Source: an uncultured Actinomycetota bacterium
GTDB taxonomy: Bacteria; Actinomycetota; Actinomycetes; JAHEKZ01
Length of the DNA: 64,000 nucleotides
Reading direction: 5' to 3'
Assembly (NCBI GenBank): GCA_963743915.1
Contig: CAVURN010000003.1
Span: 416,001 to 480,000, forward strand
The position numbers were made by a program, and so were the translations under genes. The notes beneath the pieces are model-generated. The model was given only the letters and a program-made list of their open reading frames with translations, was not told the DNA's origin and made no database searches. Shown here piece after piece: positions 2 to 43,215 of the stretch; position 1 is the stretch's first letter, and every line of letters starts with the position of its first letter.

Positions 2-1033
2 GGCTACGGCGTCACGGCGGGCTCGACCCGTCGGCGTCGGAGGGTCGCACCGCCGAGCCCGCACGGCACGCTGCGCCCGGAGGCGGGACCACCCGGCGAG
101 CCGGTCAAGCCCGTGCGACACGGGGGCCTCGAGGTCGGACGCGCAGCGGAGGCGAAGTTCGCCGAGGCGAGAGGACCGGCGCGGGCCAAGCCGCCCGTGC
201 GACGTCTGGCCAAACAGCTCGGGATCGACCTGGGGGCGGTCCGGGCGACGGGACCGGACGGCACGATCACGCGCGACGACGTCGAGGCGGCGGCGGCGTT
301 GCTGGCGCCCGAGACCGCGGGCGTGTCCGCTGTCGCGCAGGGAGACCGCCGGGAGCCGGTGCGCGGGATCACCCGCACGATGGCGGCGGCGATGACCGAG
401 AGTGCGTCGACCATCCCGGCGGTGGCCGAGTGGGTCGAGGTCGACGTCACCCGCAGCCGTGAGCTGCTCGAGCGGATGCGAGCGATGCCGCAGTTCGCCG
501 AGGTGAGTGTCACGCCGCTGCTGCTGGTGGCGCGCGCATGCCTGGCGGCGATGCAGCAGGAGCCGCGGCTCAACGGGGTGTTCGACGCCGACGCGCAGGA
601 GATCGTGCATCGGGCGTCGGTGAACCTCGGCATCGCCGTGGCGAGCGAGCGTGGACTGGTCGTGCCGCATGTGGCGGCCGCTGAGACGTTGACGCTGTCA
701 GAGCTGGCCCGGTCGATCGGCGACGTGGTGCGACGGACGAGGGACGGTGAGGTGTCACCGGCCGAGCTGGTCGGTGCGACGTTCACGATCACCAACGTCG
801 GCGTCTTCGGCGTCGACGGCGGGACGCCGATGATCGCGCCGGGTCAGTCGGCCATCCTCGCGGTCGGGGCGTGGCACGAGCGCCCGTGGGTCGACCGCGG
901 ACAGCTGGTGGTCCGCACCACGTGCACGCTGTCGCTCTCGTTCGACCACCGCTTCATCGACGGCGCGACCGGTTCGCGGTTCCTGCGGACGGTGGCCGAC
1001 GTCCTGGAGGAGCCGGCCCTCCCCGCCCTCTGA
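2..1033 (+). CDS. Dihydrolipoamide acyltransferase (E2) of a 2-oxoacid dehydrogenase complex, 5'-truncated by the window edge
   Basis: E3-binding motif AKPPVRRLAKQLGIDL...GPDGTITRDDV; catalytic domain with GATFTITNVG and LSLSFDHRFIDG; frame is open to the window start. Confidence 0.93.
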   Translation, partial: GYGVTAGSTRRRRRVAPPSPHGTLRPEAGPPGEPVKPVRHGGLEVGRAAEAKFAEARGPARAKPPVRRLAKQLGIDLGAVRATGPDGTITRDDVEAAAALLAPETAGVSAVAQGDRREPVRGITRTMAAAMTESASTIPAVAEWVEVDVTRSRELLERMRAMPQFAEVSVTPLLLVARACLAAMQQEPRLNGVFDADAQEIVHRASVNLGIAVASERGLVVPHVAAAETLTLSELARSIGDVVRRTRDGEVSPAELVGATFTITNVGVFGVDGGTPMIAPGQSAILAVGAWHERPWVDRGQLVVRTTCTLSLSFDHRFIDGATGSRFLRTVADVLEEPALPAL

Positions 1034-1082
1034 CAGCCCGCCGAGTGTCCCCTTGGGTGGGGCCACAGCCGGCCGAGTGTCC
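1033..1082. repeat. Short tandem direct repeat (ACAGCC[C/G]GCCGAGTGTCC x2, 32-bp period), related to 22675-22719
   Basis: Copies at 1033-1050 and 1065-1082 differ by one base. Confidence 0.6.
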
Positions 1083-1085
1083 GGG

Positions 1086-2159
1086 CTACCGGATGGTGAT
1101 CTTCACCGGCTTCGACTTCGAGGCGACGTAGTAAGGGGCGAGGTCGGTGGAGTACACGCGGTACTTGCCGTCGGCGTCCGCACCGGGCGTCAGGCGGAGC
1201 ACGTAGCTGCCGTCGTCCTTGATCGTCGCGTCGCAGCTGCCGCCGCCCCAGGAGCCGCCGGCCGTGCTCTGCCAGCAGATCTTCGAGCCGGCGACGAGCG
1301 ACGGGCTCCCCGACACCTGGCCGCGGAAGGTCAGTTCACGTCCAGCCCGGATGGTCGTGTCGGGTCGGACCTTGAGGGAGATCGCCGCACGGACGTCGAT
1401 GGCCACGGTCTTGGTCCAGCCGCCGATGCCGTCCGCCGGGATGTACCGGGCCCAGTACCGGCCGTTGATCCGCGGCTTGGTCTTGAACGACCACTTGCCG
1501 CCCGTGGTAGTGGTGACCTCGGAGGTCGCGGCATCCGTCTCCACGCTCTTGGGGGTGGGGTCCCGGAAGATCGTGATGGTCTTGTTCGCGAGCGGCGATC
1601 CGTTGGCTGAGGTCAGCGTGCCCGACAGCTCGATGACCTTTCCGCTGAGCACCGTCGACCGGCTCGTCGCGATCGACAGATTGAAGCCGCTCGCCATGCA
1701 CGTAGCCGATCGGGGTGTTCGCTGGCGTCGCCGTCCGGCGAGATGACGTCGCCGCCACTGTCGATGGCGTACACCGCGAAGTAGTAGTTCTTGCCCGCGC
1801 TGAGGTCCGTCGGCGATCACCTCGCGGGCACCGTCCACCGGCACCGTGCCGAGGCTGTGTAGCGCACCGTCCGGGTCCGTAGGTCGCGATTGCCTTGGGT
1901 GACGAAGCTGTCGTCGCGGTCTGCGACGACCCAGATACTCGTCGAACGTGGGGAATGTTGGGTCGATGGTGGGGCAGTCGCCCCACGTCACGACCGCCTT
2001 CTTGGCGCCGTAGTCGTCGTCGGATCCATTCGCCTTGGGCGGAGTCACGACGAGGTTGGCGGGGTTCTCGGGCGCGGCCGACGCCACTCCCGAGAGGGTG
2101 ACGACGGCACCGGTGGCCACCAGGCCGATGGCAGCGACAGCAGCAGTCAGACGCTTCAA
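1086..2159 (-). CDS. Secreted protein with Fn3-like and Ig-like beta-sandwich domains (internal compensating frameshifts)
   Basis: Signal peptide MKRLTAAVAAIGLVA...ASA; an alternative frame near 1750-1810 reads DLSAGKNYYFAVYAID (Fn3-like); beta-rich C-terminal half. Confidence 0.7.
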   Translation of the reverse strand: MKRLTAAVAAIGLVATGAVVTLSGVASAAPENPANLVVTPPKANGSDDDYGAKKAVVTWGDCPTIDPTFPTFDEYLGRRRPRRQLRHPRQSRPTDPDGALHSLGTVPVDGAREVIADGPQRGQELLLRGVRHRQWRRRHLAGRRRQRTPRSATCMASGFNLSIATSRSTVLSGKVIELSGTLTSANGSPLANKTITIFRDPTPKSVETDAATSEVTTTTGGKWSFKTKPRINGRYWARYIPADGIGGWTKTVAIDVRAAISLKVRPDTTIRAGRELTFRGQVSGSPSLVAGSKICWQSTAGGSWGGGSCDATIKDDGSYVLRLTPGADADGKYRVYSTDLAPYYVASKSKPVKITIR

Positions 2160-11846: not shown

Positions 11847-12002
11847 GTGCGAAAGTGGATGTCGGCTGCGTGGCGGCGGTGGCTCATGTGGCGCTATCGC
11901 CACAACCAGTCGACCGATGCCCGAACCGACCGTCTCGCTGCCGAGCACATCGACCGTCTGGAGCACGGCATCAAGGACTCTCGGGGTCCGGAGATGATTT
12001 GA
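11847..12002 (+). CDS. Small 51-aa WRY-motif protein (copy C)
   Basis: MRKWMSAAWRRWLMWRYRHNQSTDARTDRLAAEHIDRLEHGIKDSRGPEMI; CATCAT 6 nt before GTG; similar to the ORFs at 34648 and 34890. Confidence 0.65.
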   Translation: MRKWMSAAWRRWLMWRYRHNQSTDARTDRLAAEHIDRLEHGIKDSRGPEMI

Positions 12003-33288: not shown

Positions 33289-33368
33289 GGGTCCTCCTCG
33301 CGTGAATCCGGCCGCTAGGCTAGACTTCCATCTATTGAATAGTGATGACTATAGGGAATTGAGATCAG

Positions 33369-34008
33369 GTGTCAAGGCGTCCGTACGACTCCACCCGTCG
33401 ACAGCAGCAGGCGGCCGCGACCCGGAGGGCGGTGATGGACGCGGGGCGTGCACTCTTCGTCGAGCGCGGCTACGCGGCCACCACGGTCGCCGACATCGCG
33501 ACGTCCGCCGGTGTGGCACCGGCCACCGTGAATGCTGCCTTCGGGGGCAAGGCCGGGCTGCTCAAACGCCTCGTCGACGTGGCCATCGTCGGTGACGACG
33601 AGCCGGTCCCGGTCGCCGAGCGGGACATTGCCCGGCGCATCGCCGCCGAGCCAGACGCGCGCCGGCAGATCGAGCTGCTCGTGGGCTCGCTGACCGAGAC
33701 CCATGAGCGCCTGGCCGAGCTGCACGACGTCGTGACTCAAGCGTCCGGCGTCGACGAGCAGGTGCGGGCTGAGCAGGTCCGTGGCCAGAAACGACGACGT
33801 CTGGGAATGGGTGAGTTCGTGGCGCTCGTGCGCGACGAGGCCCTCGCGCACGACCGGGAGACGACAGCCGACATCGTCTGGGCGCTGACCGAGCCTCGCC
33901 TGTACCTCGGTCTCGTCCGCGAGCGGGGGTGGACGCCGGGACCAGTACCGGAGATGGCTGATCGATCAGCTGGTGACCGCTGTCCTCCGACCCGACTCAC
34001 CCGGCTAG
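33369..34008 (+). CDS. TetR family regulator (frameshift near 33940)
   Basis: FVERGYAATTVADIATSAGVAPATV...GGK HTH; C-terminus WTP/DQYRRWL in a shifted frame. Confidence 0.88.
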
Positions 34009-34020
34009 TAGTCTCCCCGC

Positions 34021-34605
34021 GTGCTCCTCTCCGACCGAGACATCCAAGCCGAGATCGCCGCCGGACGCGTCCAGCTCGACCCGTTCGACGCCGCGATGGT
34101 GCAGCCGTCCAGCGTCGACGTCCGGCTCGACCGCTACTTCCGCGTCTTCGAGAACCACCGCTACCCGCACATCGACCCGGCGAAGGAGCAGCCCGAGCTC
34201 ACCCGCCTGGTCGAGCCTCAGGGCGACGAGCCGTTCATCCTGCACCCGGGCGAGTTCGCGCTGGCGTCCACGTACGAGGTGGTCTCGCTCCCCGACGACG
34301 TCGCGGGGCGGCTGGAGGGCAAGTCCTCGCTCGGACGCCTCGGCCTGCTGACCCATTCCACGGCGGGCTTCATCGACCCCGGCTTCTCGGGCCACGTCAC
34401 GCTCGAGCTGAGCAACGTCGCCACGCTGCCCATCAAGCTGTGGCCGGGCATGAAGATCGGCCAGCTGTGCCTGTTCCGGCTCTCGTCGCCCGCGGAGCAC
34501 CCGTACGGGTCTGAGAAGTACGGCTCGCGCTACCAGGGCCAGCGGGGCCCGACGCCGAGCAAGTCGTTCCTCAACTTCCACCGCACCGACATCCCGCAGG
34601 GCTGA
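34021..34605 (+). CDS. dcd: dCTP deaminase
   Basis: [58 protein letters not shown]. Confidence 0.97.
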
Positions 34606-34647
34606 CGACCAGCCCGCTGGGTGCGTGGCCGGTGGAGACGGGTCGCG

Positions 34648-34818
34648 TCAGTGCATGCTCATGGGGGGCGGGCCGTAGGGACTGCCGCCTTCGCGTTGGT
34701 GCTGGAGCCGCTCAGCGGCGTCGCGGTCCTGGCGGAAGGCATCGCGCTGCTGGTCCTGGTAGCGCCAGATGAGAAGGCGCTTCCAGGCGCGAGCGGTCAG
34801 ATCAGCGACACGTCTCAT
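34648..34818 (-). CDS. Small 56-aa WRY-motif protein (copy A)
   Basis: MRRVADLTARAWKRLLIWRYQDQQRDAFRQDRDAAERLQHQREGGSPYGPPPMSMH; GAGGGG RBS; absent from the ORF track. Confidence 0.72.
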   Translation of the reverse strand: MRRVADLTARAWKRLLIWRYQDQQRDAFRQDRDAAERLQHQREGGSPYGPPPMSMH

Positions 34819-34889
34819 GGCGACCCCCTCAGCAGGTCTGGCCAGTGTGACAGAGCCGTCAGATCCGCGGCAGACGTTCAGCCCGCGGG

Positions 34890-35033
34890 TCAGTGCAGGT
34901 GGCTGGCGCGCGCGATCTGCAGACGCTCGTGCGCATCACGCTGGCTGCGGGCACGAGCGGTGCTCTGCTCCTCGTAGCGCCAGATCTGGAACCGCTGGAC
35001 GAGACGCTCGACGGGGGCGACGACGGAACTCAC
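34890..35033 (-). CDS. Small 47-aa WRY-motif protein (copy B)
   Basis: MSSVVAPVERLVQRFQIWRYEEQSTARARSQRDAHERLQIARASHLH; AGAGGT RBS before GTG; ungapped similarity to copy A. Confidence 0.72.
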   Translation of the reverse strand: MSSVVAPVERLVQRFQIWRYEEQSTARARSQRDAHERLQIARASHLH

Positions 35034-35202
35034 AGGAGACACCTCTAGGGAAGGGCCGACAGGGGTCGGCGGTCGTGCTGGAAGGACGCCTCCATGGTGC
35101 AGGACGGAGCACTGGTGTTCCAAATCGGGGCGCGCGGTTCCACCATGCGGAAGCGCAGCGTTCCGGCACGTCCACCAGGCACGCACGCGGCGGGCTGGGG
35201 GC

Positions 35203-37386
35203 TCAGCCCGCCGCAGCGGCGCCATTCTTCGCGGCCTTCAGCAGCAGCTGGGCGACGTCGACCACCTGCACCTGCTCCTCGCGCTCGACCTCGGACTGCA
35301 CCTCCGAGACGCCGTCGCTGAGCATGACCTTGCAGAAGGGGCAGCCGACCGCGATCGTCTGCGCGCCGGTGCCGATGGCCTCTTCGGTGCGCTCGGTGTT
35401 GACCCGCTTGCCGATCTTCTCCTCCATCCACATCCGAGCACCGCCTGCTCCGCAGCAGAACCCGCGCTCGGAGTTGCGCGGCATCTCGGCGAAGTCGGCA
35501 CCGGAGGCCCCGATGAGGTCGCGAGGAGGGCTGTAGACCTTGTTGTGGCGACCGAGGTAGCAGGGGTCGTGATACGTGACCTTCTCCGACACGGACGACA
35601 CCGGGGTCAGCTTGCCGTCGCGCACCAGCGTGTTCAGCAGCTGCGTGTGGTGGACGACCTCGTAGTGACCGCCGACCTGCGGGTACTCGTTGCGCAACGT
35701 GTTGAAGCAGTGGGCGCAGGTGACGACGATCTTCTTGGCCCCGACCTCGTTGAGCACCTCGACGTTCTGCTGCGCGAGCATCTGGAACAGGAACTCGTTG
35801 CCGGAACGGCGCGCGGAGTCGCCGGTGCAGGTCTCCCCCTCACCGAGCACCGCGAAGGTGACGCCGGCCATGTGCAGCAGCTCGGCGACCGCCTGCGTGG
35901 TCTTCTTCGCTCGGTCCTCGAAGGCACCGGCGCAGCCGACCCAGAACAGGTACTCGGTGTCGTCGTCGAGTGGGCCTTCGACGACGTTCACCTCGAACGG
36001 CAGGTCGGCGGCCCAGTCCATCCGCGAGGACGCGTTCATGCCCCACGGGTTGCCCTTGCTCTCCATGTTCTTGAAGAGGCCACCGAGCTCGGCGGGGAAC
36101 TCCGACTCGATCAGCACCTGGAAGCGGCGCATGTCGGTGATGTGGTCGATGTGCTCGATGTCGACGGGGCACTGCTCGACGCAGGCTCCGCACGTCGTGC
36201 AGGACCAGAGGACGTCGGGGTCGATGACGCCGCCGCCGATGGCGTGCCCGCTCTCGTCGTGCTCGGTCGGGCCGACGAGAGGACGTTCCGCGGCGTCCTG
36301 CACGCTCTGCGAGAAGGCGGTGAGATCGACCGGGACCGGCGGATGCGCACCACCCGTGGAGGCCAGGTAGTCCGGGTGCTTCTGCTTGATGAGGTACGGC
36401 GCCTGGGCGAACGCGTTGTCCCGCAGGCTCATGATGAGCAGCTTCGGCGACAGCGGCTTACCCGTGTTCCACGCCGGGCACTGGGACTGGCAGCGGCCGC
36501 ACTCGGTGCACGTCGCGAAGTCGAGCATGCCCTTCCAGGTGAAGTCCTCGAGCTTGCCGCGTCCGAACACGTCGTCCTCGCCCGGGTCCTCGAAGTCGAT
36601 CGGCTGTCCACCGGAGTACATGGGCAGCATCGGGCCGAGCGCGTTCGGACGCCGCGAGAACGCGACGTTGATCGGTGCCACGAAGATGTGGAGGTGCTTG
36701 CTGTACACGACGATGACGAGGAAGCCGAGGATCACCGCGAGGTGCAGCAGCACGCCGATCGTCGCGAGCTTCTCGTTGGTGCTCTCGCCGAGCGGCTCGA
36801 GCAGGTTCGCGAAGAACTGCGAGCCGAACGCGAAGTCGTCGGGGTACGGGAAGTGCCCTGAGTTGATCTTCGCGCCACGGTAGAAGAGCAGCGTCCAGAC
36901 GACGTTGAAGATCATGAAGAGCACGAGCCAGGCGGCTCCGGTGTGCGAGCCGTAGAAGCGCGACGCGCGACCGCGGTTGTTGGGGTTCTGCTTGATGCGG
37001 ATCACCGTGAAGACAACCAGGGCCACCAGGACGAGGACGGCGAACAGGTCCTCGACGAAGGCCACGACCGCCCACTCGTCGATGACCGGGATCGTCAGCT
37101 CCGGGTCGATGATCGACAGGTACGCCTCGACGATGGTGAGTCCCAGGATGATGAATCCCCAGAACGCGAACGCGTGGGCGATCCCCGGCACCGTCCACTT
37201 CAGCAGCTTGCGCTGCCCCAGCACCTCGACGGCCTCGGCCTCGACGAGCTGCCGCGGATCGGGCAGCGTTCCCGCCGGTCGCGGTTGGCCGACGCGGATC
37301 AGTCGCCACAGCATGAAGGCGCGGCGTCCGGCGACGAGGGCGACCACCAGGGTCATCACCAGGCCGATGGCGAGGGCTGGCTGCAC
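35203..37386 (-). CDS. Membrane-bound Fe-S oxidoreductase (FadF / heterodisulfide-reductase-like)
   Basis: N-terminal TM domain; CTECGRCQSQCP and CTTCGACVEQCP; CCG domains (WVGC, YHDPC, CCGAGG, GCPFC). Confidence 0.93.
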   Translation of the reverse strand: MQPALAIGLVMTLVVALVAGRRAFMLWRLIRVGQPRPAGTLPDPRQLVEAEAVEVLGQRKLLKWTVPGIAHAFAFWGFIILGLTIVEAYLSIIDPELTIPVIDEWAVVAFVEDLFAVLVLVALVVFTVIRIKQNPNNRGRASRFYGSHTGAAWLVLFMIFNVVWTLLFYRGAKINSGHFPYPDDFAFGSQFFANLLEPLGESTNEKLATIGVLLHLAVILGFLVIVVYSKHLHIFVAPINVAFSRRPNALGPMLPMYSGGQPIDFEDPGEDDVFGRGKLEDFTWKGMLDFATCTECGRCQSQCPAWNTGKPLSPKLLIMSLRDNAFAQAPYLIKQKHPDYLASTGGAHPPVPVDLTAFSQSVQDAAERPLVGPTEHDESGHAIGGGVIDPDVLWSCTTCGACVEQCPVDIEHIDHITDMRRFQVLIESEFPAELGGLFKNMESKGNPWGMNASSRMDWAADLPFEVNVVEGPLDDDTEYLFWVGCAGAFEDRAKKTTQAVAELLHMAGVTFAVLGEGETCTGDSARRSGNEFLFQMLAQQNVEVLNEVGAKKIVVTCAHCFNTLRNEYPQVGGHYEVVHHTQLLNTLVRDGKLTPVSSVSEKVTYHDPCYLGRHNKVYSPPRDLIGASGADFAEMPRNSERGFCCGAGGARMWMEEKIGKRVNTERTEEAIGTGAQTIAVGCPFCKVMLSDGVSEVQSEVEREEQVQVVDVAQLLLKAAKNGAAAAG

Positions 37387-39512: not shown

Positions 39513-39533
39513 CTTGCGCCGTCACGACTCATG
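39513..39533. promoter_or_regulatory. HAIR element (HspR operator)
   Basis: CTTGCGC-N7-ACTCATG versus consensus CTTGAGT-N7-ACTCAAG, upstream of dnaK. Confidence 0.75.
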
Positions 39534-39594
39534 TTATGTGATAGGCCATACCGCAGTTTCCGCATCATCGAGCCACAACGAAGGAGCCAGATCC

Positions 39595-41442
39595 ATGGGC
39601 CGAGCCGTCGGAATCGACCTCGGGACGACCAACTCGGTCGTCTCGGTCCTCGAGGGTGGCGAACCCACCGTCATCGCCAACGCCGAGGGCGCCCGCACCA
39701 CGCCGAGCATCGTGGCCTTCGCCAAGAACGGCGAGGTCCTCGTCGGCGAGGTCGCCAAGCGCCAGGCGGTCACCAACCCCGACCGCACCATCCGGTCGGT
39801 CAAGCGCCACATGGGCACGACCTGGTCCGTCGACATCGACGGCAAGGCCTACACCGCCCAGGAGATCAGCGCCCGGGTGCTGCAGAAGCTCAAGCGCGAC
39901 GCCGAGGCGTACCTCGGTGAGCCGGTCACCGAGGCCGTCGTCACCGTGCCCGCGTACTTCAACGACGCCCAGCGCCAGGCGACCAAGGAGGCCGGCGAGA
40001 TCGCCGGCCTGAACGTCCTCCGGATCATCAACGAGCCGACGTCGGCCGCCCTCGCGTACGGGCTCGACAAGGGTGACCTCGAGCAGACGGTCCTCGTCTT
40101 CGACCTCGGTGGCGGCACGTTCGACGTGTCCCTGCTCGAGATCGGCGAGGGTGTCGTCGAGGTCAAGGCGACCAGCGGCGACAACCACCTCGGGGGCGAC
40201 GACTGGGACGACGCCGTCGTCACCCACCTCGTCGACCGCTTCAAGGCAGGGCACGGCATCGACCTGTCCAAGGACAAGATGGCGATGCAGCGCGTCCGGG
40301 AGGCGGCTGAGAAGGCGAAGATCGAGCTGTCCAGCTCCAGCCAGACGTCGATCAACCTGCCGTACATCACCATCGACGCCGAGAAGAACCCGCTCTTCCT
40401 CGACGAGACGCTCACGCGTGCGCAGTTCCAGAACATGACGCACGACCTGCTCGAGCGCACCCGTCGGCCGTTCGAGACCGTCATCAAGGACGCCGGGATC
40501 AAGGTCGGCGACATCGACCAGATCATCCTGGTCGGCGGTTCCACCCGGATGCCCGCAGTGGCTGACCTCGTGCGCGAGCTGACCGGCGGCAAGGAGCCGA
40601 ACAAGTCGGTCAACCCCGACGAGGTCGTGTCCGTGGGTGCAGCGCTGCAGGCGGGCGTGCTCAAGGGTGAGGTCAAGGACGTCCTGCTGCTCGACGTGAC
40701 CCCGCTGTCACTGGGCATCGAGACCAAGGGCGGCATCATGACCAAGCTGATCGAGCGCAACACCACGATCCCGACCAAGAAGTCGGAGATCTTCACCACG
40801 GCGGACGACAACCAGCCGTCGGTGCAGATCCAGGTCTACCAGGGGGAGCGCGAGATCGCCGCGTACAACAAGAAGCTCGGCATGTTCGAGCTGACCGGTC
40901 TGCCACCGGCACCGCGCGGCATCCCGCAGATCGAGGTCGCGTTCGACATCGATGCCAACGGCATCGTGCACGTCCACGCCAAGGACCTTGCCACCGGCAA
41001 GGAGAACTCGGTCAAGATCTCCGGCGGCTCCGCGCTGAGCAAGGAGGAGATCGACCGGATGATGTCCGACGCCGAGAGCCACGCCGCCGAGGACGCCGCC
41101 CGCCGCGAGGAGGCCGAGGTCCGCAACTCCGCGGATGCGTTGGTCTACCAGACCGAGCGGTTCCTGGCCGACAACGCGGACAAGGTGCCTGCGGAGGCCA
41201 AGGCCAACGTGGACGAGCCGCTCGCCGAGCTGAAGAAGCTGCTCGAGGCCGAGGGCACGGACACCGAGGCGATCAAGGCCGCGGTCGAGAAGGTGGCGAC
41301 GGCCAGCCAGGCGCTCGGCGCCGCGATGTACCAGAGCGGTGACACGCCGGCCGCCGGTTCCGAAGCGACCTCCCCCGACGACGACATCGTCGACGCCGAG
41401 ATCGTCGACGAGGGGGACACGGACGAGGGTGCGAAGGCATGA
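39595..41442 (+). CDS. dnaK: Chaperone DnaK
   Basis: [35 protein letters not shown]. Confidence 0.99.
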
Positions 41443-42026
41443 CGGAGCAGGAGCCGAGTGGTCCGGTGATCCGCGACAAGCGGCGCATCGACCCTGAGAC
41501 CGGTCAGGTGCGAGAGGCGGCGGCCACGGTCGCTGCCTCTGCACCTGATGAGGCACTGGCCGATGAACAGGCAGCGGCCGCAGTCGTCGAAGGCGACCTG
41601 GCCGCGCTCGAGGCGCAGCTCGCCGAGCGCACCTCCGACGTGCAGCGTGTCCATGCCGAGTACGCCAACTACCGCAAACGTGTGGACCGTGACCGTGAGC
41701 TGGTGCGCGACCAGGCGACGGCCGCGGTGCTGGCTGAGCTGCTCACGGTGCTCGATGACATCGACCGGGCACGCGAGCACGACGAGCTGAACGGCGGCTT
41801 CAAGTCGGTCGCCGAGGCGCTGGAGGCGATCACGGGCAAGCTCGGCCTCGAGAGGTACGGCACCCCAGGTGAGCCGTTCGACCCCACGGTCCATGAGGCG
41901 CTCACCCACACCGAGGACGAGGCGGTCACCGAGACCACGTGCGTCGCGGTCTTCCAGCCCGGCTACCGGTTCGCGGGGCGCGTGCTGCGTCCGGCGCGGG
42001 TCGCCGTCGCCGATCCCCCCGCCTGA
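41439..42026 (+). CDS. grpE: Nucleotide exchange factor GrpE
   Basis: [20 protein letters not shown]...RVLRPARV. Confidence 0.97.
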
Positions 42027-42063
42027 CCCGAGAACGACGCGAGACCACCGAAGGAGGTGACCC

Positions 42064-43215
42064 ATGAGCGCTCGGGACTACCTCGAGAAGGACTACTACG
42101 CCCTGCTCGGGGTCACCAAGACCGCCACCGCGGACGAGATCAAGAAGGCGTACCGCAAGCTGGCCCGCCAGTACCACCCGGACGCCAACGCCGGTGACAG
42201 CAAGGCGGAGGAGAAGTTCAAGGAGATCTCCGAGGCCTACGACGTCCTCTCCGACGACGCCAAGCGCCGTGAGTACGACGAGATGCGTCAGTACGGCGGG
42301 TCGTTCGGCGGCGGTGGATTCGGCGGGGCCCCCGGCGGGTTCGGTCCAGGTGGCGCCAGCACGGTCAACCTCGGCGACCTCTTCGGGGACTCCGGGCTGG
42401 GCGACATGCTCGGCGGGCTGTTCGGGCAGGGCGGGCGCGGGGGCCACCGTCGGGCGAGCAAGGGGGACGACCTTGCTGCGCGCGTGACCCTCGGTTTCCG
42501 CGAGGCGGTCAACGGCGTCACCACCCAGGTCCAGCTGCGCTCGGAGGCCGCCTGCCCGACCTGCGGCGGCAGCGGAGCCAAGCCCGGCACCTCACCCCAC
42601 ACCTGCGCCGTCTGCGGAGGGAGCGGTCAGACCGTCCGGCAGCAGGGCGGGTTCGGTTTCGCCGAGCCGTGTCGCGCCTGTCACGGACGAGGGACCGTGG
42701 TCGACGACCCGTGCAGCACCTGCCAGGGGGTCGGCGTCACTCCGCAGACGCGCACCGTCAAGGTGCGCGTCCCTGCCGGGATCAAGGACGGCGGCACGCT
42801 GCGGGTGCCGGGCAAAGGTGCTCCGGGGCGCGGCGGTGGTACCGCCGGCGACCTTCTCGTCACCGTCCACGTGCAGCCACACCCGGTGTTCAGCCGGAAG
42901 GGCGAGCACCTCACCGTGACCTTGCCCATCACCTTCGCCGAGGCTGCGCTCGGCGCCACGGTCAGCGTGCCGACGCTCGACGGCGAGCCGGTCAGCCTGA
43001 AGATCCCTGCCGGCACCCCGAGTGGCCGCACCTTCCGCGTACGGGGACGGGGGATCGCGATGAAGAGCAAGCAGGGCGACCTGCTGGTGACCGTCGAGGT
43101 CGCCGTTCCGCAACGAAGCGACGGCAAGGCCAAGAAGGCACTGCAGGCGTACGCCGAGGCCACGGCGGACGACGACCCGCGCACCGACCTGATCGCGCAA
43201 GCCGGAAAGGACTGA
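42064..43215 (+). CDS. dnaJ: Chaperone DnaJ
   Basis: J-domain HPD, G/F-rich region, four CxxCxGxG motifs. Confidence 0.98.

Follow-up and report, generated by a model that had tools for sequence, protein, structure and literature searches.

A probable small-protein family apparently confined to one uncultured actinobacterial order

Introduction

Two short ORFs lie in tandem between a dCTP deaminase gene and a FadF-like gene in the genome of an uncultured bacterium of the phylum Actinomycetota. Do these ORFs code for members of a genuine family of small proteins and, if so, what might the proteins do? The question was raised by an earlier note on the window, which is the whole stretch of 64,000 nucleotides that was analyzed. 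Working from the DNA letters alone, the note assigned both ORFs to a family marked by a W-R-Y motif, and judged their products compatible with small regulators, membrane-associated modulators, toxin-like peptides or RiPP-like precursors.

A tandem pair of small ORFs

Both ORFs are on the minus strand. ORF A (34890..35033) runs from a GTG start at 35033 to a TGA stop at 34892-34890 and codes for an A-type microprotein of 47 residues (VSSVVAPVERLVQRFQIWRYEEQSTARARSQRDAHERLQIARASHLH), which begins MSSVVAPVERLVQRFQIWRYEEQ and ends ERLQIARASHLH. An RBS-like AGAGG (35042..35046, minus strand) is located 5' of the GTG within a longer AGAGGT sequence that is invariant in 11 of 11 genomes. ORF B (34648..34818) begins with an ATG at 34818 and codes for the B-type paralogue, a protein of 56 residues (MRRVADLTARAWKRLLIWRYQDQQRDAFRQDRDAAERLQHQREGGSPYGPPPMSMH) with the same kind of N-terminal helix as A followed by a GGSPYGPPPMSMH tail. 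A purine-rich, RBS-like GAGGGGG is found 6 nucleotides before this ATG. Thus, the pair of tandem minus-strand ORFs reported in the earlier note is present, with purine-rich RBS-like motifs before both members. A PPP run near a stop codon, as in the B-type tail (34648-34700, minus strand), would be a strong EF-P-dependent stalling motif.

On one flank of the pair is dcd (34021-34605, plus strand), which codes for dCTP deaminase (DCD, PF22769, E 3e-46). On the other is a minus-strand gene (35203-37386) coding for a FadF-like membrane CCG/4Fe-4S oxidoreductase of 727 residues. Both neighbors that the note had named were therefore recovered. Searches with tblastn indicate that the arrangement of a fadF-like gene, the small ORF or ORFs and a convergent dcd gene is kept within the genus, and some genomes of the genus carry A alone, without B. 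In two genomes, G003 (1501-1990) and G011, the order is fadF, a B-type gene, the GGAAC block described below, and a long A-type gene with a Gly/Pro tail. From these sequences, it looks as if the 47-residue A-type protein is a truncated derivative and B has switched sides relative to A.

A heat-shock cluster (39514-43215, plus strand) of dnaK, a possible grpE and dnaJ is located some 2 kb past the FadF-like gene; its HSP70 and DnaJ domains were confirmed, and the middle ORF is a putative grpE. An ORF antisense to dnaK (39565-40443, minus strand), opposite the HSP70 gene (39514-41442, plus strand), matches PF10712 'NAD-specific glutamate dehydrogenase' (E 3e-67). This match most likely reflects an artifact of antisense translation and not a gene.

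Paralogy of A and B, and a third copy

When A and B are aligned from residue 1 without gaps, 17 of 42 codon translations are identical. Together with the initiator Met, these make up the 18 identities in 42 positions that had been counted before. The sequence IWRY at residues 17-20 and a terminal His are present in both proteins, and BLASTP also pairs the two paralogues (15/30 identities, E 9e-8).

A third, C-type copy is located at 11859..12002 (plus strand), between a gene for a C69 peptidase and a thioredoxin/NHL gene. The existence of this copy had been predicted correctly, but its start had been placed at a GTG at 11847. An ATG at 11859, giving 47 residues, is more likely because the orthologues P0038 and P0054 begin at that Met, with MSA(V/T)W. 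The columns that are invariant across the three copies (R14, W18, R19, Y20, R29, R32, A34 and E36) match exactly the proposed consensus R-x2-[IM]-W-R-Y-x8-R-x2-R-x-A-x-E. A six-frame scan of the 2.9 Mb genome (70% GC), using an HMM built from the same three copies that it recovered, finds only these three (E 2e-31 to 7e-21), and the next best match has an E value of 0.29.

Coding potential and selection

A-type orthologues in nine of nine genomes of the genus have an identical GTG start, 47-codon length and stop. Pairwise dN/dS values for these genes (Nei-Gojobori, all 36 pairs) range from 0.076 to 0.528, and variable columns are distributed over codon positions 1, 2 and 3 as 15, 12 and 34, of 47 codons. 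Across the genus, identity of the A-type protein is 70-87%, compared with 94-97% for DCD and 90-93% for the oxidoreductase.

The B-type gene evolves much faster, with dN values of 0.10-0.70 within the genus. Its closest orthologue pair has a dN/dS of 0.17. Seven further pairs span 0.19-0.85, where several of the values from 0.5 to 0.85 come with near-saturated dS, and two pairs are saturated. Constraint on B therefore appears to be real but weaker, and is clear for the closest pair only. Purifying selection, which the earlier note had named as a check, is evident for A and for the closest B-type pair.

The same note had also asked whether the similarity between copies might come from a non-coding repeat. 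At the nucleotide level, only 68 of 126 positions are identical between A and B, with 25, 24 and 19 identities at codon positions 1, 2 and 3. Identities are thus more common at positions 1 and 2 than at position 3, which indicates that the likeness exists at the protein level and is not that of a DNA repeat.

Coverage by RNA libraries

A stretch of 1.2 kb is present in part in 20 public runs, six of which are RNA libraries. Contigs from four runs in three studies are nearly identical to the window and together bridge the gap between A and B (34655..35022, strand not given by the contigs). They are 99-100% identical, with zero to two differences over 184-316 nucleotides. X16 covers 34655-34934 with no difference, X15 covers 34678-34991 with one, and X19 covers 34804-34993 with one, whereas X17 is in two pieces, 34655-34862 (two differences) and 34839-35022 (one difference). 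Pieces of dcd from the same runs are mostly 90-95% alike, and so derive from relatives. This pattern is consistent with A and B being carried on one transcript that is more abundant in this organism than the mRNA of the neighboring genes. Contigs of this kind do not reveal strand, transcript ends or translation, and some DNA may be present in RNA libraries. No near-identical RNA-library contig covers 35038-35324, which includes the upstream block and the fadF 3' end, and missing contig cover proves nothing.

Contigs from two studies share an end at 34655, which is a hint only. Two contigs (X16 and X17) run straight from the dcd end into that of ORF A (joint 34593/34892). Such joints represent co-sampled relatives without ORF B, in agreement with the genomes that have A alone.

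Given the selection on these genes and the RNA-library contigs that span them, we regard it as very likely that A and B belong to a real, selected and transcribed family of small proteins.

Absence from family libraries, distribution and subtypes

The three window proteins match no Pfam or NCBIfam family at E<=10. When family searches were made with all 45 aligned members, no family was matched by more than two of them (best E 0.0016). The best matches in PADLOC (E 0.018), PHROGs (E 0.21) and a profile search of PDB (E 0.21) are at chance level, six Rfam matches (E 0.08-1.1) are all far below their gathering scores, and the ESM Atlas returns unnamed clusters with scores of 0.80-0.82. The assertion that no known family is involved thus agrees with the lack of any significant match in Pfam, NCBIfam, PHROGs, PADLOC, PDB sequences or Rfam.

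The label 'unannotated' needs to be narrowed. It is apt in that no described family exists, but 53 homologue clusters are already present in public protein sets. These were found by a profile search of 5.8 billion clusters, and represent proteins of 40-98 residues from MAGs labeled Actinomycetes or 'Nanopelagicales', for which the source names shown are all 'hypothetical protein'. An exhaustive search of 1.84 billion representatives yielded 36 matches, 13 of them at E<=1e-10. A full-text search found no use of the term 'WRY motif' in the text it covered and, judged from the portion of the literature so searched and from the family libraries, the family is absent from print. What is new, then, is an undescribed family. 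Lineage-restricted proteins from sORFs are known as a kind, and members of this family are already stored as unnamed hypothetical proteins.

The distribution of the family is narrow. With a first profile applied to 41 related genomes, matches were found in 12 of the 13 other genomes of the genus, and a wider profile detected members in 17 of the 20 order genomes examined. When sampling was extended across the class, matches appeared in 11 of 14 genomes from the same taxonomic family and in 3 of 286 others; these three (E ~1e-3, inside open frames of 585-923 residues) are probably due to chance. A search for related loci with the 56-residue B protein recovered one locus, in an uncultured Actinomycetota MAG. 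In the genomes sampled, the microprotein family therefore appears to be confined to one uncultured actinobacterial order and essentially absent elsewhere.

All matches to the family are small, in keeping with a stand-alone character, save one protein of 184 residues. This sole longer form is similar in its first 40 residues and may come from a frameshifted or wrongly called gene, which makes it uninformative. In genome G009 (430-1644, plus strand), a family member is found at the C-terminal end of a 405-residue open frame upstream of a PstS-like gene. This frame, which is rich in Pro and Arg and of low complexity, is probably spurious, a fused form being the other possibility.

At least four subtypes can be distinguished by their tails. 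A-type proteins end in ARxSHLH, with a long variant carrying a Gly/Pro tail in genomes G003 and G012. B-type proteins end in GGSPYGPPP..., C-type proteins in EHIDRLEHGIKDSRGPEMI and D-type proteins in KGVLKEGMPP.... The tails vary between subfamilies, yet are conserved within them, and contain no Cys.

Protein properties and predicted structure

The three proteins have pI values of 11.2, 10.7 and 9.9, with 8-11 Arg or Lys residues in 47-56 positions. Sequence analysis found no transmembrane-like hydrophobic segment, signal peptide or Cys in any of them. GRAVY values lie between -0.77 and -1.28, and the maximum Kyte-Doolittle mean over 15 residues is 0.53 for A, 0.44 for B and -0.6 for C. These values make the membrane toxin or modulator proposed in the earlier note unlikely, as there is no hydrophobic segment for such a role. 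The candidate classes of type I toxins and small membrane proteins were set aside on the same basis, as no hydrophobic transmembrane helix is present.

AlphaFold2 models made with the family alignment predict that A forms one continuous helix over residues 5-46, with a mean pLDDT of 87.3 and values of 91-95 over residues 11-40. For B, a helix is predicted over residues 2-42, with pLDDT values of 82-90 over the first 20 residues, a mean of 67.8 and about 54 in the tail. Single helices of short proteins can be predicted with excess confidence by this method, and the B tail is poorly predicted. Of the architecture suggested previously, namely an amphipathic N-terminal helix, a charged helix and a variable tail, the first and last elements are retained, whereas the models show one helix and not two. 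A ribbon-helix-helix repressor or antitoxin was considered and rejected, since both models consist of one helix without a strand and no Pfam family of this fold is matched. Prediction of a complex between A and B returned a score of 0.00 without controls, which says nothing for or against binding.

The first 18 residues have hydrophobic moments of 0.45 in A and 0.62 in B. They carry a hydrophobic seam with a spacing of three to four residues (V4/V5, V8, L11/V12, F15 and I17/W18) that ends in the near-invariant R-x2-I-W-R-Y. This is followed by a nearly invariant charged stretch, R32-D-A-x-E36-R-L, in which E36 is shared by at least 90% of 45 aligned members. After the charged stretch comes a Gly/Pro-rich tail, except in the short A-type proteins.

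The region upstream of ORF A

A conserved non-coding block (35092..35153, minus strand) is found upstream of ORF A in an alignment of 11 genomes and is present in all 11. Its form is (G)TnCC-N7-GGAAC, about 15 nucleotides, and then CGATTTGGAAC-N15-GTTSC-CATA, after which come a variable stretch, a hairpin and the RBS. The 11-mer CGATTTGGAAC is invariant in the 11 genomes and forms part of two invariant GGAAC direct repeats spaced about 21 bp apart (GTGGAAC ... CGATTTGGAAC). Most relatives also have inverted outer half-sites in the block (GTTCC-N7-GGAAC and GGAAC-N15-GTTCC). In the genome of the window, these outer half-sites are degenerate (CTTCC and TGCAC) and the GTT is absent.

A single copy of the block is present in each of the three genomes that were scanned (the window's own genome, G006 and G003), and it remains immediately 5' of the A-type gene in G003 and G011, whose order is fadF, B, block and A. 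No GGAAC block was found before other paralogues. Because the motif is unique in each genome, no regulon is visible. A scan of a genome collection for CGATTTGGAAC-N15-GTT found at least 120 loci in unrelated phyla, and 0 of 120 among the matches listed encode a family member; the pattern is too unspecific to show the range of the element.

Immediately 5' of the RBS, in the presumed leader of ORF A, RNAalifold predicts a hairpin, GCCGAC-CCCT-GTCGGC (35055..35070, minus strand), that pairs alignment columns 107-112 with 117-122. The pair 111/118 covaries among the 11 sequences, appearing as AU (4), UA (3), GU (2) and GC (1). This hairpin may stabilize the 5' end of the mRNA. A riboswitch-like reading of the upstream block was discarded, as the predicted pairs other than the hairpin are either invariant or broken without compensation. 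A known cis-regulatory RNA is likewise not indicated, since no Rfam family is matched at its gathering score.

Promoters used by ECF sigma factors carry GGAAC at -35 and GTT/CGT at -10, with a spacing of about 16-18 nucleotides. A promoter of this type was considered for ORF A and rejected: GGAAC-N15-GTT is present in 10 genomes, which is off the usual spacing, and the GTT is missing in the genome of the window. A scan of 34500-35300 for sigma-70 promoters and intrinsic terminators found no site of either kind. We infer that the block might be A's own promoter, a putative one, with an operator for some regulator.

The neighboring TetR protein was also considered as the regulator of A, and was rejected because the region upstream of its own gene has a different, AT-rich palindrome. 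This palindrome, TCTATTGAATAG, is in an AT-rich stretch (33320-33366, plus strand) just 5' of the TetR-family gene (33369-34000), in a genome with 70% GC, and the stretch is probably the TetR operator and promoter.

Possible functions of the family

The explanation that we favor has several parts. A, B and the copy at 11859 would be genes for soluble, basic, Arg-rich proteins of about 47-60 residues, each essentially one long alpha-helix. A and B would share one transcript, starting at A's own promoter region and separate from the upstream Fe-S oxidoreductase gene. This promoter region would consist of the locus-specific block with its GGAAC repeats and the leader hairpin. The proteins would modulate a larger cellular partner, either a nucleic acid or a protein complex, by docking onto it with the conserved face of the helix, and regulated transcription of A would set their amount. 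For this explanation as a whole, comprising the real family, the single-helix proteins, the A/B transcript and the docking mechanism, we estimate a probability of about 0.5. That the proteins serve as stand-alone helical modules binding a larger partner, with dosage set at A's promoter, is a tentative proposal drawn only from the shape and composition of the proteins.

A rival reading, which is doubtful but has several points in its favor, is that these microproteins bind nucleic acid through their Arg-rich helix, the target being either RNA (ribosome or mRNA) or DNA. If DNA is the target, A would dimerize via its N-terminal seam and regulate its own gene by binding to the GGAAC repeats 5' of it. 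The pI of 10-11 and the 8-11 Arg or Lys residues in 47-56 positions are in line with this reading, but an Arg-rich composition is to be expected in a genome with 70% GC. The predicted fold, a long unbroken helix, recalls proteins with a basic region and zipper, but the hydrophobic seam comprises only about five positions, and no DNA- or RNA-binding family is matched. The two invariant GGAAC direct repeats directly 5' of A in 11 of 11 genomes, with inverted outer half-sites in most, also favor this reading. Set against this are the other paralogues, which lack the block, and the degenerate outer half-sites in the window genome. A bolder version, to which we give little credence, is that A-type proteins are minimal single-helix transcription factors, an 'inverted bZIP', that dimerize by the N-terminal seam and read GGAAC half-sites 5' of their own gene, while the faster-evolving B-, C- and D-type proteins are heterodimerizing partners or competitors that tune A.

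Improbable, in our judgment, is a peripheral membrane modulator, in which the N-terminal amphipathic helix would lie at the membrane interface with a belt formed by W-R-Y and tune a membrane complex such as the FadF-like CCG/4Fe-4S oxidoreductase. Trp, Tyr and Arg are often found at membrane interfaces, which fits such a role. The hydrophobic moments of the first 18 residues (0.45 and 0.62) and the conserved order of the fadF-like gene and then A in the genus also speak for it. Nevertheless, no transmembrane segment is present, the conserved residues are mostly charged, and paralogues in other genera and at other loci are not beside fadF. In addition, A has its own upstream block and, as a weak point, no near-identical RNA-library contig links fadF to A.

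The idea that the proteins are RiPP-like precursors or secreted or toxic peptides, in which a variable core follows a conserved leader, is very improbable. It draws on the contrast, seen across subfamilies, between a conserved N-terminus and a variable C-terminal tail. Within the A type, however, conservation extends to the last residue, with SHLH at the C-terminus in 22 of 24 A-type rows of a 26-row alignment. There is no Cys, the tails contain few Ser or Thr residues, neither a signal peptide nor a hydrophobic stretch is evident, and PADLOC and PHROGs return no significant match. The genomic context is equally unhelpful to this idea. Neighbors of the paralogues at five loci are unrelated, with no shared neighbor, no adjacent modification enzyme and no modification, protease or export gene common to the five. 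Those recorded are DCD, CCG oxidoreductase and TetR; C69 peptidase and thioredoxin-NHL; SDR and DUF4389; a tautomerase; EamA and a polyprenyl synthetase at the end of nuo; and PstS. Because these neighbors are unrelated, gene context points to neither a partner nor a modification system, and the RiPP-like precursor suggested in the earlier note is unlikely.

We give just as little weight to a non-coding origin, in which a small RNA or DNA repeat accounts for the conservation and the ORFs arise by accident. Long spurious ORFs are common at 70% GC, and RNA-library contigs cannot show translation. However, A has a third-position substitution bias and dN/dS values well below 1, A and B are more alike as proteins than as nucleotides, the start codon and RBS are conserved, and Rfam offers no match (best E 0.08).

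Relation to known systems

The closest known systems are analogies and not relatives. Most characterized bacterial sORF microproteins are membrane helices. The sORF-encoded binding microproteins of bacteria resemble the present family in being shorter than 60 residues, encoded by stand-alone genes with their own RBS, single-helical, lineage-restricted and free of an enzymatic domain. They differ in that no described member has a sequence relation to the present family, which is soluble and basic.

Like the single-helix DNA-binding proteins of the bZIP type, the A-type protein joins a hydrophobic seam and an Arg-rich stretch in one uninterrupted predicted helix, here about 42 residues long, and repeated half-sites are present 5' of A. 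In contrast, the order in the present family is inverted, with the seam N-terminal and the basic part C-terminal, the seam spans about two heptads, no family is matched, and DNA binding and dimerization are putative. The actinobacterial ribosomal microproteins bS22 and bL37, when compared by description, are also small, rich in Arg and Lys, helical and found only in Actinobacteria, whereas the present family is limited to one order, with 1-3 paralogues in each genome and what looks like a regulated promoter of its own.

The tail of the B-type protein recalls that of Exendin-4, which has a Trp-cage (PDB 5niq and 9g0m). In both, a helix is followed by Gly-Gly and a Pro run (...ERLxxxxxGG-SPY-G-PPP in the B type versus ...EWLKNGG-PSS-G-APPPS). 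However, the E values of 0.21 and 1.2 are not significant, the B tail is one residue shorter with a pLDDT of about 54, and A-type proteins lack the tail. A Trp-cage fold for the B type was rejected because His or Gln, and not Trp, is found four residues before GG, and because the Exendin-4 match has an E value of 0.21.

Implications

A narrow family with no known phenotype would have limited wider impact unless its partner is central to the cell, such as the ribosome, RNA polymerase or DNA. What the present findings add, for an uncultured actinobacterial order of soil, sediment and freshwater, is a small-protein family that is under selection and apparently transcribed; genes of this sort in the order otherwise carry only the name 'hypothetical'. 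The A-type gene, together with its unusually conserved and locus-specific upstream block, provides a tractable case for examining the regulation and binding of a 47-residue helix.
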